A stretch of DNA of 43,576 nt from an uncultured Candidatus Saccharibacteria bacterium (lineage in GTDB: Bacteria; Patescibacteriota; Doudnabacteria; UBA920; O2-02-FULL-48-8), in contig CAYOPE010000004.1 in assembly GCA_964405805.1 (NCBI GenBank), positions 1 through 43,576 on the forward strand, in the 5' to 3' direction. Positions 1 through 43,576 of this stretch are shown here, in pieces; position 1 is the stretch's first letter, and every line of letters starts with the position of its first letter. Position numbers and translations under genes: made by a program. The notes under the pieces were generated by a model, which searched no databases, had not been told where the DNA came from, and saw only the letters and a program-made list of their open reading frames with translations.

Positions 1-824
1 TGCTAACTCTGTGCCAGCAGCAGCGGTAATACAGAGACCTCAAGCGTTATCCGGAATCATTGGGCGTAAAGCGTACCGATAGGTGGTTTTATAAGTTTTG
101 CCTAAAATCCCGAAGCTTAACTTCGGTCTTGGGTAAAATACTGTAAAACTTGAGGGGCAAAGAGGTGCTTGGAACGAACGGTGTAGTAGTGAAATGCGTT
201 GATATCGTTCGGAACACCGAAAGCGAAGGCAGAGCACTGGGTGCCACCTGACACTGCTAGGACGAAAGCGTGGGGAGCGAATGGGATTAGATACCCCAGT
301 AGTCCACGCTGTAAACGATGAATACTAGGCATGCGCGAGTATCGACCCTCGTGCGAGCCGTAGCTAACGCGTTAAGTATTCCGCCTGGGGAGTACGGTCG
401 CAAGACTAAAACTCAAAGGAATTGACGGGGACCCGCACAAGCGGTGGAGCATGTGGTTTAATTCGACGGTAAGCGAGGAACCTTACCAGGGTTTGACATG
501 TACCTTCAAGCGCACGGAAACGTGTGATCTTCGAGAGTGGTACACAGGTACTGCACGGTTGTCGTCAGCTCGTGTCGTGTTCACTGAAAACCCCTTTTCA
601 AAAAAGTGGTTTTCAGTACTTTCCGCAAAAAGGATGGCGAAGTAAATTCGCCAGCTCAAGGACGGAAAGCTAATTTCGCGACCTCATGGAGTAATCTGTG
701 AGAAAAATCCAACTATATCGGGGAAACCCTATACTTAGGGCAATCCCGAGGGAAGTCCACTGCTTAATTTGATTAAAAAAGGCCGCACCCGCAGGGGCAC
801 GGCCACAGACGTTCGACTCGATCG

Positions 825-956
825 CTACTCGGCGATGAGACGAGGCACTGGCAGCAGACGCAGCCAGAATCCACGTCTCCAGTCGAAGAAGATTCCGATT
901 TTGAACGGACGTTTGGTCGCGTACAGGTGTACGCCATCGAACATGTGTCTCACCAT
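825..956 (-). CDS. Antisense 43-aa basic/hydrophobic mini-ORF inside the 16S intron (MVRHMFDGVHLYATKRPFKIGIFFDWRRGFWLRLLPVPRLIAE)
   Basis: On the minus strand there is a -35 TTGATT (1010-1005), a 17-nt spacer and an extended -10 TGTTATCAT (-10 at 987-982). SD GAAGGAGGG lies 4 nt before the ATG (956). After the stop there is a GC hairpin (804-781) plus a T6 run (780-775). The segment looks GC-rich, like the other cassettes. Confidence 0.35.
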   Translation of the reverse strand: MVRHMFDGVHLYATKRPFKIGIFFDWRRGFWLRLLPVPRLIAE

Positions 957-1120
957 GATGCCCTCCTTCAATGAGCTCATCATGATAACACAAGCAATTA
1001 GAATAATCAAGATTAAGCATGACCCCCTAGAGACTACACGTTGGCTCCCGAGAAATCGGGATGAAGATATAGTCCGACCTGCTAGGTAACTAGCAGAGCA
1101 TAAAAGAAATTTTATGCCAC

Positions 1121-1225
1121 GTAACAATTTTGAATTCTGAATTTAGAATTTTGAATCAAATTCGAATATTAGAATATTTAATATTCAATCGAAATTCAAA
1201 ATTAAAAATTCGAAATTATTGTTAC
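1121..1225. repeat. AT-rich long imperfect hairpin built of GAATT/AATTC units, near the intron 3' end (peripheral extension)
   Basis: GTAACAAT...ATTGTTAC closes a ~105-nt stretch of reiterated TTTGAATT/AATTCAAA motifs. Confidence 0.6.
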
Positions 1226-1758
1226 GAAGTAACAAATTGGAGATGTTCCCTTAAGTGGGAGAACGAGCGCAACCCCCGTAGTATGTTGATTTTCATACTA
1301 GACTGCCGGCGTTTAAGCTGGAGGAAGGTGGGGATGACGTCAAATCAGCGTGGTCTTTACGCCCTGGGCGACACACGTGCTACAATGCATAGGAACAATG
1401 GGACGCAACATCGCAAGATCGAGCAAATCCTCTCAAAAACTATGCTCAGTTCGGATTGGGGGCTGCAACTCGCCCCCATGAAGCTGGAATCGCTAGTAAC
1501 CGTGAATCAGCCTCGTCACGGTGAATACGTTCTCGGGTTTTGTACACACCGCCCGTCACACCATGGAAGTGGTTAATACCCAAAACTTTCGCAAGAGAGC
1601 TAAGGTAAGAATCATGACTGGGGTGAAGTCGTAACAAGGCATCGGTAGCGGAAGCTGTCGATGGATCACCTCCTTTCTAAGGAGAAAATCTCTAAGGTTT
1701 AACTTAGAGACAATTGTCGATACGTGAAATTTATTCCCAATAAATTGTTTGCAAACTA

Positions 1759-1794
1759 AAACCGGCGGCCCTATTTTTAGGTGCGCCGGTTTTA
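1759..1794 (+). terminator. Hairpin plus U-run about 80 nt after the 16S 3' end
   Basis: ACCGGCGGCCCTA-TTTT-TAGGTGCGCCGGT followed by TTTT. It could alternatively be a processing stem. Confidence 0.5.
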
Positions 1795-1798
1795 AATT

Positions 1799-2467
1799 AT
1801 GTTAATCATTCCTGGTATGGATAAAAAAATTTCTGAACACAAAATTCGCGAGAAAATAGTCGTAGAGTTTTTAACTGATGTAGCAAACGAGGCAAATATA
1901 GTTTTTTATAGAAATGAAAGTGAAAGCTATATAGTCCCATTGAGGATACAACTGATAATTTCTTTCAGCCTTTTAGATTTATTTGCAAATTATTGGTATG
2001 AATATAAAGGGGAAACTGGAACGCAAAGTGGAAGAATGACAAGTTGGTATGATAAATATTGCAGAACATCAGAAAATGAAGTATATGCTTCAGATGACCA
2101 ATGGAAAGATTTAAGTTCTTCCCGATTGTCTGAGTTTCGTAATGCTCTAGTTCATTTTTTTGGTCTTGGAGAAGTAAAACCGAACGATATTTATCTTGCA
2201 CTTGTCTCTAATGATTTGCCTAAGATAGAGATAGAAAGTATGCGAACTAAATTCACGAATGGCGGTCATCCGACTATAATTGTCAAACCAATCGAGTTTC
2301 ATAGCCTCATTAAGAAGGGTGCGATATTGATGCTAGAAGAATGGGCTAATGTTATTAATCAATCGAAAAATAGCCAGACGATAACTTTGCAGTATATAAC
2401 TGCTATTGAAAGGGTATTTAATAAAATCCAAAAAGAAGGGGCAGTCCAAGTACTTAAGAAAAAATAG
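1799..2467 (+). CDS. Hypothetical protein with a HEPN-like Rx4H motif
   Basis: 222-aa AT-rich ORF. SEFRNALVHFFG contains R-N-x3-H, which matches the Rx4-6H HEPN RNase signature. No other family was recognised. Confidence 0.6.
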   Translation: MLIIPGMDKKISEHKIREKIVVEFLTDVANEANIVFYRNESESYIVPLRIQLIISFSLLDLFANYWYEYKGETGTQSGRMTSWYDKYCRTSENEVYASDDQWKDLSSSRLSEFRNALVHFFGLGEVKPNDIYLALVSNDLPKIEIESMRTKFTNGGHPTIIVKPIEFHSLIKKGAILMLEEWANVINQSKNSQTITLQYITAIERVFNKIQKEGAVQVLKKK

Positions 2468-2504
2468 TTTTGCACTTTTATTACTCACGGTATATAGTTT
2501 GATT

Positions 2505-41657: not shown

Positions 41658-41708
41658 CCTCGCCTTGACCTTCGCTATAAAGCGAGTCGAGGCGGGGCGT
41701 GATTTTTT
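41658..41708 (+). terminator. Long hairpin terminator, sibling of 40444-40493
   Basis: CCTCGCCTTGAC-CTTCGCT-ATAA-AGCGAG-GTCGAGGCGGGG plus CGTGATTTTTT. Confidence 0.75.
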
Positions 41709-41733
41709 CCACAAAATATCCTCATTTAGGGGG

Positions 41734-41762
41734 TTGACAGGGGAGTATAAAAAAGTTATAAT
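41734..41762 (+). promoter_or_regulatory. Perfect consensus sigma70 promoter TTGACA-17-TATAAT
   Basis: Read directly. It is the only full-consensus promoter I found in the window, about 520 nt upstream of the 23S. Confidence 0.75.
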
Positions 41763-41893
41763 TGATTCAAGATAGTCAAAAACAAAAGCGAATTAACCAA
41801 AATAAGGCTTAAACTATGGTTTACACAGGACATTTTGTTTCAACGAAAGGCGGTTCAATGAACTAGCGCGCATTTTTGTGTGCTGGATTCAAA

Positions 41894-41916
41894 GGCCCGC
41901 CGAAAGGCGGTTTTTT
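41894..41916 (+). terminator. CCGCC-GAAA-GGCGG plus T6 hairpin about 150 nt downstream of the consensus promoter
   Basis: Same hairpin family as 3609 and 5333. Confidence 0.6.
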
Positions 41917-41954
41917 AATCGCCCTAATGCTAGTTCTCTAAATGGGCGATTTAC

Positions 41955-42031
41955 TACGAAATACGAATCGGTACGAATATACGAAAAGGACTAACCCAGT
42001 TCGTACTTTCGTAAAAATTCGTAAGTTCGTA
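41955..42031. repeat. Array of 4x TACGAA followed by 4x TTCGTA with mirrored spacing (long hairpin or protein-binding array)
   Basis: TACGAA at 41955, 41962, 41972 and 41980. TTCGTA at 42000, 42008, 42018 and 42026. Spacings are 7/10/8 versus 8/10/8. Confidence 0.8.
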
Positions 42032-42285
42032 GAAAGCCGTAATAGATACGGCTCACTACTTCCCCGCGTCGGTTGCTTTAACCAGGGTCTGAAAGTGAGT
42101 AGTGAGCTGTGCAAGTTACGGCTAGCACTTTGACAACTAACCGGCATCTTAGAAGAGAAAAACGAAAAGAGAAAAATGCAAAACAATTGTTTTGATCTCT
42201 TCTCTTTAATTTTTACTCTTCAAAAAGTCCTCGTGCATGTAACACGGGGCATTCTAGTAATCACTGATTGCTAGTCAAATAAATG

Positions 42286-43576
42286 AATTAAACAATTAAG
42301 GGTGTATGGTGGATGCCTTGGCAGATTAAGCCTAAGAAGGACGTAGCAGCCGACGATAGCTTCGGTGAGGTGGCAAGCAACCTTTGACCCGGAGATTTCC
42401 GAATGGGGCAACCTACATGTTTGAAGAACATGTGCACGCTAGCCGTGGTGGCTAGAAGTGCGGGATACCGCGTGAAGTGAAACATCTCAGTAACGCGAGG
42501 AAAAGAAACGAAGGGCGATATTTTTTTCGAGCTTTGAATATTCAAGCTTGAAGAAACTATTGTCATATTCCCCTAGTAGTGGCGAGCGAACGGGGAAGAG
42601 TCTAAACTAACTTTGTGTTTTCGAGCCGAAGAATAATCGCAAGATTGTTCCAAGCTTGATTTAAAGCTTACAGGCGTTGCAAAGCTTGGGGTTACAACAA
42701 TCATTCATTCAAACTCTGTAAAGTTTGAGAAGATCCAAATTTGAGCTGTTTAGCCGAATGGCCTGGAAAGGCCAGCCAAAGAGCGTGATAGCCGCGTAGC
42801 GCGAAAAACCTCTTATATCTTCCGAATGGTTTGTTAAGTACAACTAGACACGTGAAATCTAGTTGGAATTTGTGTCGACTACGACATAAGACTAAATACT
42901 TAATCTGACCGATAGTGAACAAGTACCGTGAGGGAAAGGTGAAAAGCAGCCCGGTGAGGGCGATGAAATAGTACCTGAAACCATACACTTACAATCGAGT
43001 AGGAGCCCCGATCCGCAAGGATCGTGGGTGACTGCGTGCCTATTGAAGAATGATCCAACGAGTTAGTGGTACGTTGCTTACTTAAGCCAGACAACTGGCG
43101 AAGGTATAGTGAAAGCAAGCGTTAATAGCGCGTATTAGGATAAGTAGTAAGTAGAAAGTAGTAAGGTGTAAGGGGTTTTGCCCTTTATACTTTCTACTTG
43201 TCCCTTACTACTATTCCTAAAGGTAGCGTACTCTACACCCGAAACCCGGTGAGCTACTCATGGTCAGGATGAACCTTGTGTAAAAACAAGGGGAGGTCCG
43301 AACGCTAGTATGTTGCAAAATACCGCGATGAACTGTGAGTAGAGGAGAAATTCCAATCGAACTGGGTGATAGCTGGTTCTCCCTGAAATAGCTTTAGGGC
43401 TAGCCTGTGCTGCACGTGTTTGAGGTAGAGCACTGAAACGGCTTCATGGTAGCAATATCATGAACCGTACCAAACTCCGAATTCAAACACTTAAGAGCAT
43501 GGAGTCAGACAATGAGGTCTAAGCTTCGTTTGTCTAATGGAGAAGAATCCGAATCGCCGCTTAAGGTCCCCAAATC
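42286..43576 (+). rRNA. rrl: 23S rRNA, 3'-truncated by the window edge (about the first 1.29 kb), with two small expansion segments
   Basis: GGTGGATGCCTTGGCA, GATTTCCGAATGGGG, CCTAGTAGTGGCGAGCGAACGGGG, GACCGATAGTGAACAAGTACCGTGAGGGAAAGGTGAAAAG, ACCCGAAACCCGGTGA, GATAGCTGGTTCTCCC, TAAGGTCCCCAAA. The start is approximate (+/-10 nt). Confidence 0.95.

Follow-up and report, generated by a model that had tools for sequence, protein, structure and literature searches.

Unlinked genes for 16S and 23S rRNA on either side of a conserved type IV pilus locus in Candidatus Doudnabacteria

The window analysed here, 43,576 bp in length, is the complete contig CAYOPE010000004.1, in agreement with a database record for one of its proteins, where the longest contig measures 43,576 bp; therefore both of its ends break inside rRNA genes, in the 16S gene at the start and in the 23S gene at the end. 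Between the two lies a gap of 40,609 bp (positions 1677-42285 by Rfam rRNA coordinates), which holds a tRNA-Ile/tRNA-Ala pair, a type IV pilus cluster and ligA. The order 16S, tRNA-Ile, tRNA-Ala, 23S is that of a canonical rrn operon, and all four genes lie on one strand of the window (Rfam, ARAGORN). Named homologues of LigA (68-80% identical) and PilM (65-81%) come mostly from Candidatus Doudnabacteria, a candidate phylum of the Candidate Phyla Radiation (CPR). Is this an operon that is being taken apart, or has the locus been inherited in its present form? We consider it very likely that the window is real, contiguous chromosomal DNA of Candidatus Doudnabacteria in which the rRNA genes are unlinked, with an inherited backbone, separate transcription units and three variable islands.

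The initial annotation had described a spacer of ~40.6 kb with ~60 genes, invaded repeatedly while gene order and strand were kept. Its positions for the 16S end, the hairpin and U-run behind it, both tRNAs, the promoter at 41734 and the 23S start are all correct by Rfam, ARAGORN, folding and consensus scanning. The size of the gap likewise agrees with ours; the gene count was too high, since we find ~51 plausible open reading frames (ORFs), 48 on the plus and three on the minus strand.

Signals around the two rRNA genes

The rRNA genes and the backbone between them comprise the following features.

1-1676, plus strand: 16S rRNA gene, 3' two-thirds, 5' end cut (Rfam RF00177, 892.8 bits, model 495-1533)
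1731-1751, plus strand: conserved 16S trailer motif TTATTCCCAATAAATTGTTTG, predicted 3' strand of a leader-trailer processing helix (motif comparison)
1757-1794, plus strand: predicted intrinsic terminator closing the 16S unit (hairpin and U-run, dG -24.2 kcal/mol, z -5.3)
11494-11522, plus strand: promoter-like site, TTTACA-17 nt with TG-TAAATT, 26 nt upstream of tRNA-Ile (candidate from a consensus scan, 9/12)
11548-11624, plus strand: tRNA-Ile(GAU) (ARAGORN, Rfam)
11631-11882, plus strand: conserved gene for an 83-aa two-helix membrane protein between the tRNAs (tblastn)
11883-11956, plus strand: tRNA-Ala(UGC) (ARAGORN, Rfam)
11997-12025, plus strand: promoter-like site for the pil cluster, TTGACG-17-TATAAT (candidate from a consensus scan, 11/12)
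12070-21823, plus strand: type IV pilus core, with pilM, pilN, pilO, an unnamed gene, pilB, a response regulator, pilT, pilC, pilins, pilD and a minor pilin (Pfam)
33382-35331, plus strand: three conserved minor-pilin-like genes (N_methyl motifs)
35334-35888, minus strand: LysM protein gene (Pfam LysM, E = 6e-32)
35979-37958, plus strand: NAD-dependent DNA ligase LigA (Pfam)
41734-41762, plus strand: perfect sigma-70 promoter of the 23S unit, TTGACA-17-TATAAT (12/12 consensus matches)
42286-43576, plus strand: 23S rRNA gene, 5' third, 3' end cut (Rfam RF02541, 736.9 bits, model 1-1054)

By these signals the genes for 16S and 23S rRNA almost certainly belong to separate transcription units, as the initial annotation had supposed: a terminator and a helix strand follow the 16S gene, the 23S gene has a promoter and a leader of its own, and minus-strand genes lie between them. 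A giant co-transcribed 43-kb operon was considered and rejected. Co-transcription is implausible because of the 16S terminator, the minus-strand genes judged real within the gap (a Lipoprotein_15 gene and the LysM gene, both by Pfam) and the inverted tRNAs of relatives described below; in silico, the promoter at 41734 likewise stands in the way of a single transcript.

None of 200 shuffled sequences folded as well as the hairpin at 1757-1794. The core of the 16S trailer, TTATTCCCAATAAATTG, is identical in five of six genomes (the window and the related loci L094, L101, L108 and L122), and its complement lies ~150-210 nt upstream of 16S in L108 (position 3766). In the sixth genome, L113, the two helix strands differ from the rest but have stayed roughly complementary (position 2197). 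The trailer motif and its upstream complement would thus form a leader-trailer helix. Behind the trailer, five of the six genomes have a hairpin with a T-run; in L108 there are hairpins, none with a clear T-run. Wherever the 16S 3' end is seen in a relative, the trailer and then unrelated genes follow it, with a clear terminator in four of five.

At the other end of the gap, the promoter at 41734 is the sole 12/12 match in ~20.6 kb scanned (1-13000 and 36000-43576), and by our own arithmetic chance alone would yield ~0.01 perfect matches in 87 kb, both strands counted. An identical TTGACA-N17-TATAAT stands 500-665 nt upstream of 23S in L082, L171, L172, L174 and L175. With the 16S trailers and a 23S promoter found in five relatives, the unlinked state shows the conservation within a clade described by Brewer et al.

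The shared backbone and its tRNA module

A metagenome scan with PilM gave 80 loci; in this and further sets of loci, ten of group A have the full 10 kb of upstream flank. In five of these ten (L094, L101, L108, L113, L122) a plus-strand 16S gene ends 4.6-8.0 kb upstream of pilM; the corresponding distance in the window, 10.4 kb, would escape a 10-kb flank test. Over aligned segments these five 16S genes are 89-98% identical to that of the window. The pilus core is colinear in L085, L086, L088, L092, L101, L108, L110, L113, L122 and L173. Homologues of the three minor pilins stand before LysM-ligA in L082, L085, L169, L170 and L171, and the LysM gene keeps its position and strand in all seven ligA loci. 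Downstream of ligA, 23S follows at 2.1-4.3 kb in the window, L082, L171, L172 and L174, five of the seven genomes.

Longer records join these parts. In JBBCGO010000001.1 (Doudnabacteria, 964 kb), tRNA-Ile(+), the 83-aa ORF, tRNA-Ala(+), pilM at 760,272 and the pil cluster are followed by the minus-strand LysM gene, ligA (785,134-787,137), 23S (~790,189), two tRNAs and 5S. JAXOUH010053240.1 (43 kb) carries pilM at 12,125 and 23S at ~42,436, and each of these two records separates pilM from 23S by ~30 kb. The window ends inside 23S; in relatives a 5S gene follows, ~285 nt after 23S in L174 and ~1 kb after it in L082, with two tRNAs between. These two, at 19045-19565 of L082 (964-kb contig), are a 100-nt tRNA-like match, possibly intron-containing, and a tRNA-Cys.

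The relatives have one backbone order in common (16S, tRNA module, pil cluster, ligA, 23S), with stretches of varying content beside each rRNA gene. About 15 kb of the gap, namely the pilus core, the minor pilins, LysM and ligA, has a conserved order among relatives whose PilM identity is 64-81%, and the rRNA split is therefore old and stable. The recurrence of the same backbone over this range contradicts the intermediate state that the initial annotation had assumed. It had also asked whether, in related genomes, both tRNAs lie in a short internal transcribed spacer (ITS) or the same genes are found in the gap: the tRNA module, the pil cluster and ligA are shared, and the island genes differ.

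Could the window instead be an assembly chimera, in which DNA of different organisms was joined, for example through conserved rRNA or through exact repeats of 400-416 bp? The contig starts and ends inside rRNA genes and does contain two exact internal repeats. Against this, a Logan contig (L001), built separately but possibly from the same reads, spans the junction of the 16S 3' end with the same downstream genes. Relatives repeat the backbone order, some of them on long contigs (104.6 kb and 964 kb), both pilin positions occur in relatives, and the 16S trailer and 23S leader bear clade-specific motifs. We regard a chimera as very improbable.

The two repeats are a 416-bp direct repeat (10497-10912 = 19200-19615), which copies most of a pilin gene, and one of 400 bp (30274-30673 = 32987-33386), which copies the 3' end of both adhesin-like genes of the second island. 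Either recent gene conversion or an assembly issue would account for them.

In the middle of the gap, tRNA-Ile(GAU) and tRNA-Ala(UGC) stand directly upstream of pilM in almost all loci whose PilM identity is 47% or higher and whose upstream flank is long enough, and the module adjoins pilM in ~50 loci. By tblastn, the 83-aa ORF lies beside or between the two tRNAs in 46 loci of groups A and B, whatever the orientation of the module. Its conserved motif is FG+vDWAE..L..G.AGTY; it has no family match in Pfam or NCBIfam, and its homologues are annotated only as 'hypothetical' or 'uncharacterized membrane protein'. Strand, on the other hand, is not kept. Four orientations occur in group A, interleaved on a neighbour-joining tree of PilM:

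Ile+Ala+: window, L086, L096, L111, L122
Ile-Ala+: L088, L092, L094, L108, L110, L113, L123, L173
Ala-Ile+: L091
Ala-Ile-: L101, and every locus of the sister group B

With four orientations among close relatives, the 'kept strand' of the window is therefore one state among several. The claim that order and strand were kept holds for the window itself and was overstated for the lineage; group B, at ~50% PilM identity, is uniformly Ala-Ile-.

L091 and L094 have 3.2 kb of identical pil sequence in common, yet carry the module in opposite orientation, a comparison to be taken with caution, as L091 is a short contig. Between positions 1-680 of L091 and 5998-6470 of L094 the tRNA-Ile/ORF segment is reversed, at 93-95% identity. 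Either a strain-level inversion accompanied by recombination or a misassembled short contig would explain the difference.

Is the canonical-looking order, then, a coincidence? On that account the rRNA genes had been dispersed earlier, and rearrangement together with leading-strand bias brought them back into a one-strand order. The plus strand holds ~94% of the genes of the window and GC skew is monotonic; with 48 of 51 ORFs on one strand, a shared strand of the RNA genes is therefore expected anyway. The module inverts often, and in group B it is uniformly antiparallel to pilM, with no rRNA gene within 10 kb. What speaks against coincidence is proximity. The 16S gene, the tRNA-Ile(GAU)/tRNA-Ala(UGC) pair typical of spacers and the 23S gene all lie within 43 kb, for which we estimate a chance of well under one in a hundred if the genome is ~1 Mb, as the 964-kb contig of a relative suggests. 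This proximity recurs in several relatives, and the module matches the '2 tRNAs + 1 ORF' spacers listed for operonic CPR genomes of Saccharimonadia and Peregrinibacteria (PMC8172020, S1 Table). A coincidental order thus appears quite improbable. The evidence for descent from a canonical operon would accordingly lie in proximity, more than in order or strand; the module is plausibly a remnant of the ancestral rRNA spacer, and the 83-aa ORF may correspond to the '1 ORF' of the operonic spacers.

The 23S leader

Between the perfect promoter and 23S, the following elements are found in the leader.

41816-41866, plus strand: hypothetical leader ORF of 16 codons, SD-like AAGG motif 8 nt upstream (candidate from leader comparison)
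41848-41916, plus strand: conserved leader switch, with an invariant AGGCGG, a variable hairpin, and an invariant CCCGCC-loop-GGCG stem and T-run (alignments, RNAalifold)
42055-42109, plus strand: boxB-like hairpin (conserved in five leaders)
42129-42151, plus strand: boxA-like antitermination element CACTTTGACAACTAACCGGCATC (conserved in all five leaders)
42254-42281, plus strand: 5' strand of the predicted 23S processing helix (conserved in all leaders)

Five 23S leaders were compared, those of the window, L082, L171, L172 and L174. A conserved intrinsic terminator (41896-41916 in the window) stands between the promoter and 23S, and the upstream AGGCGG arm can pair with its CCGCC to form an antiterminator, a pairing present in the minimum-energy fold. 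In all five leader sequences the terminator and antiterminator folds lie within 0.2-2.3 kcal/mol of each other. This switch had no place in the initial annotation. An ATG-initiated ORF of 14-16 codons ends just past the GGCGG arm in each of the five leaders; its peptide is not conserved.

The leader element (window 41769-41916; L082 14440-14592; L171 7365-7500; L172 13660-13801; L174 14035-14174) was built into a covariance model, R1, which scores 73-93 bits at 23S leaders only, in ~0.97 Mb. No copy was found elsewhere, for example upstream of 16S: the remaining R1 matches, at 26 bits or less, are ordinary CCGCC/GGCGG terminators. The 16S leaders of L108 and L113 carry a different conserved hairpin with a U-run and have no ORF in common. 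For the 23S leader element there is no matching Rfam family, and a permissive Rfam search for a known small RNA (signal recognition particle RNA, 6S RNA or a riboswitch) gave chance-level matches of at most 24.5 bits.

How might such a leader act? One mechanism would make the ~150-nt leader a regulatory attenuator: a ribosome on the leader ORF masks GGCGG and favours termination, so that free ribosomes repress 23S synthesis. We put this forward as a doubtful proposal; a ligand-sensing switch is the alternative.

In the window, ~127 nt (41917-42043), rich in TACGAA/TTCGTA repeats, are inserted behind the switch and are missing from the other four leaders. Further downstream, the boxB-like stem shows compensatory changes (CACTAC/GTAGTG, CACTGC/GCAGTG, CAGTGC/GCACTG). 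The boxA of E. coli rrn operons is UGCUCUUUAACAA. The boxA-like consensus ACTTT(G/A)ACAA of the 23S leaders reads ACTTTGACAAC in the window and ACTTTAACAA in L171 and L172, with a hairpin upstream; by its nearness to UGCUCUUUAACAA and the hairpin before it, the leader carries a putative boxA. TTGACA at 42131 was considered as a second 23S promoter and rejected: no usable -10 follows, and in the alignment it is part of the boxA-like element. Finally, the complement of the strand at 42254-42281, TTGACTAGCAGTTAGTGATTATTAA, is located 3' of the complete 23S in L082 (18496-18520).

Variable islands and the origin of the split

Outside the backbone, gene content changes from genome to genome. The islands and the remaining features of the window are these.

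665-1096, plus strand: group I intron within 16S (Rfam RF00028, 52.2 bits, cut-off 50)
1799-10402: variable island I, with hypothetical genes, a GNAT acetyltransferase, uppP, GC-rich ORFs, a PAP2 phosphatase and a CAAX protease (Pfam)
10476-11466, plus strand: two pilin genes upstream of the tRNA module (Pfam N_methyl; same position in L086 and L110)
21826-33385: variable island II, with two DsbA, three Cys-rich paralogues, the minus-strand Lipoprotein_15 gene, a Big_2 protein and two Tyr/Gln/Glu-repeat adhesin-like proteins (Pfam)
37958-41649, plus strand: variable island III, with a membrane protein, a phosphoribosyltransferase, GC-rich ORFs and one HTH_17 (excisionase-like) protein (Pfam, NCBIfam)

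Gene influx is confined to these three islands, next to 16S, inside the pilus locus and next to 23S. The GC-rich cassettes reported in the initial annotation are real: four segments (5014-6980, 26488-27558, 30759-31478 and 39265-41700) have 53-58% GC, against ~41-43% in the pilus-ligA backbone. Island I, whose segment at 5014-6980 has 52.8% GC, is a mosaic, because few of its genes are shared with relatives; only PAP2, GNAT and the gene at 9087 have counterparts, in some of them. The best matches of its uppP (4153-5013, 46% GC) are two CPR genomes (70%), followed by Actinomycetota including Thermoleophilia and Gaiellales (59-67% identity), which suggests that the gene was acquired horizontally, by transfer between Actinomycetota and CPR. 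Loci of UppP homologues show no synteny with the window, nor does an rRNA or a relevant tRNA lie near them. A 50-nt direct repeat, 94% identical (5707-5756 and 6261-6310) and made up of a GC-rich hairpin and a T-run, flanks the GC-rich ORF at 5821-6240; the ensemble looks like a small imported cassette with duplicated terminators.

The compact loci L085, L092 and L110 lack island II altogether: there the homologue of the minor pilin at 21266 abuts that of the gene at 33382. Since these loci run from the minor pilin after pilD straight to minor pilins-LysM-ligA, the stretch from 21.8 to 33.4 kb of the window is extra. Two of its genes have 57-58% GC. Cys, His and Trp are abundant in three tandem paralogues (22520-25807, 341-379 aa), which carry a membrane anchor at the N terminus, have DsbA genes at their flanks and match no family in Pfam or NCBIfam. 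Two paralogous secreted proteins (29383-30672, 32144-33385) contain extended tracts of Tyr/Gln/Glu/Pro repeats (DNA repeats of 12-18 nt), match DUF11 weakly and are probably surface adhesins.

Island III has no counterparts in relatives, except for a weak phosphoribosyltransferase match in L171; the stretch from ligA to 23S differs from genome to genome, and relatives carry other small genes there. Its segment at 39265-41700 has 54.5% GC. A phage origin of the GC-rich 39.2-41.7 kb was considered and rejected, with no blastn or tblastn match in the phage collection.

The rRNA genes, too, contain additional sequence. The group I intron is part of a ~660-nt insertion in 16S (~580-1239) that is missing in L094, L108 and L113, seen as a gap in BLAST alignments, and the 16S genes of relatives carry insertions at other positions. 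The 23S fragment is ~240 nt longer than the model span it covers and probably carries an insertion.

How far do the islands support repeated invasion of a once-short spacer, with the window as a transitional stage that keeps ancestral order and strand? They differ among relatives, contain GC-atypical genes and a uppP of apparent actinobacterial origin, and include one excisionase-like protein (HTH_17). Partial second copies of tRNA-Ile beside the intact gene, in L122 (6703-6754, 52 nt, 98%) and L101 (7935-7973, 39 nt, 97%), look like attachment-site scars of integrating elements; no such partial tRNA copies were found in the window. Invasion of the spacer is thus borne out for three stretches. 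It is not for the type IV pilus locus and ligA, which are long-term residents and the conserved core of the gap rather than recent invaders: their order holds across the relatives, and the tRNA orientation that a transitional stage should have kept is not kept. As an account of the whole locus, repeated invasion is unlikely. We read the locus as an rRNA operon split that is inherited and stable, and not as a transition in progress.

Several points weigh against an inherited backbone of this kind. No 16S was found within ~9-10 kb upstream of the tRNA module in L086, L088, L092, L110 and L173, nor in any group B locus, and in L169 and L170 23S is not within 10 kb of ligA, where tRNA-Pro, spoIIM and tRNA-Gly are found instead; not every relative, therefore, has the backbone. 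PilM is the only gene in the neighbour-joining tree, whose internal branches are short. Ancestrally, the module could have been antiparallel, as in group B, in which case the colinearity of the window is secondary. The argument for a relic spacer would be stronger with homology between the 83-aa ORF and the ORF of an operonic CPR spacer. Lastly, the transcription units and the use of promoters and terminators are predictions from sequence.

With these points considered, the stable split can be set out as follows. A canonical 16S-Ile-Ala-23S operon would most likely have split once, long ago, leaving the tRNA module as the surviving piece of the old spacer. The resulting backbone would have been inherited by a clade of relatives: 16S, a variable island, tRNA-Ile/83-aa ORF/tRNA-Ala, the type IV pilus cluster, minus-strand LysM, ligA, a short variable stretch and 23S, with the 5S gene seen after 23S in relatives as its last element. 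Its signals suggest several independent transcription units on the leading strand. The first would be 16S with its own leader-trailer processing helix and strong intrinsic terminator, the second the tRNA module with its own promoter, the third the pilus operon or operons and ligA, and the fourth 23S with a consensus promoter, a bistable terminator/antiterminator leader, boxB/boxA-like elements and the 5' strand of a 23S-specific helix. Later evolution would have been concentrated in the three islands, which take up foreign GC-atypical genes, while the tRNA module inverts repeatedly.

Among known systems, the canonical rrn operon has the same gene order and strand, the usual spacer tRNA pair, a boxB/boxA-like element before 23S and leader-trailer helices (PMC10250234, where the boxB-boxA-boxC leader arrangement is described). 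It differs from the window, which has a 40.6-kb gap with ~51 ORFs, a strong terminator after 16S and a separate 23S promoter; the canonical spacer is at most 1.5 kb (Brewer et al.), as opposed to 40,609 bp. The predicted 16S helix of the window closes on its own trailer, that of the canonical operon on a short spacer leading into 23S.

In Patescibacteria, rRNA genes are commonly unlinked and the trait is conserved along the phylogeny (Brewer et al. 2020, preprint 10.1101/705046). Of 34 circularised CPR genomes 27 are unlinked, with 2.9-309 kb between 16S and 23S (Lui et al. 2021, PMC8172020) and, for example, with 43,790 bp in a Paceibacteria genome (PMC8172020). At 40.6 kb, the window far exceeds the 1500 bp between closest 16S and 23S beyond which Brewer et al. 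class rRNA genes as unlinked. It falls into the type 'unlinked by distance, same strand' of Lui et al. 2021 (Fig 3D; more than 2000 bp, with opposite-strand genes precluding one promoter). The likeness to this CPR type is close: 16S and 23S more than 1.5-2 kb apart on the same strand, intervening opposite-strand genes, distances of tens of kb and a clade-specific distribution. Studies of the type report distances and status only, whereas here the gap content, islands, helices, promoter and leader are resolved; Doudnabacteria are missing from the S1 table of Lui et al. (PMC8172020).

Separate 16S and 23S-5S units with their own promoters, fixed across a clade, also occur in the split rRNA loci listed for Deinococcus-Thermus, Rickettsiales, Buchnera and Wolbachia (10.1101/705046, PMC8172020). 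There, unlike here, order and proximity are usually lost (mean ~410 kb in complete genomes) and no spacer tRNAs remain between the genes. The rRNA locus of Borrelia burgdorferi resembles the Ile-Ala+ state of many relatives here; PMC8172020 cites it as a decoupled case.

The rRNA gap of B. burgdorferi is only a few kb long, its 23S-5S pair is tandemly duplicated and there is no embedded pilus locus. Unlinked rRNA genes are an established feature of most CPR bacteria; new are the resolved gap content, its conservation across a clade and the 23S leader switch. In Doudnabacteria the gap contains the tRNA module, probably left from the old spacer, which encloses a conserved gene for a small membrane protein; the type IV pilus cluster and ligA come next. 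Throughout a clade the split is stable, with a predicted self-contained processing helix and separate transcription signals for each rRNA. As a practical consequence, 16S-ITS-23S amplicons and long-read operon typing will fail for this lineage, and short-read contigs tend to break at both rRNA genes, as the window does. How are 16S and 23S kept in balance if they are separately transcribed? The conserved 23S leader switch is a concrete candidate: if real, it could, by either mechanism, help to balance 16S and 23S output despite the unlinked genes.

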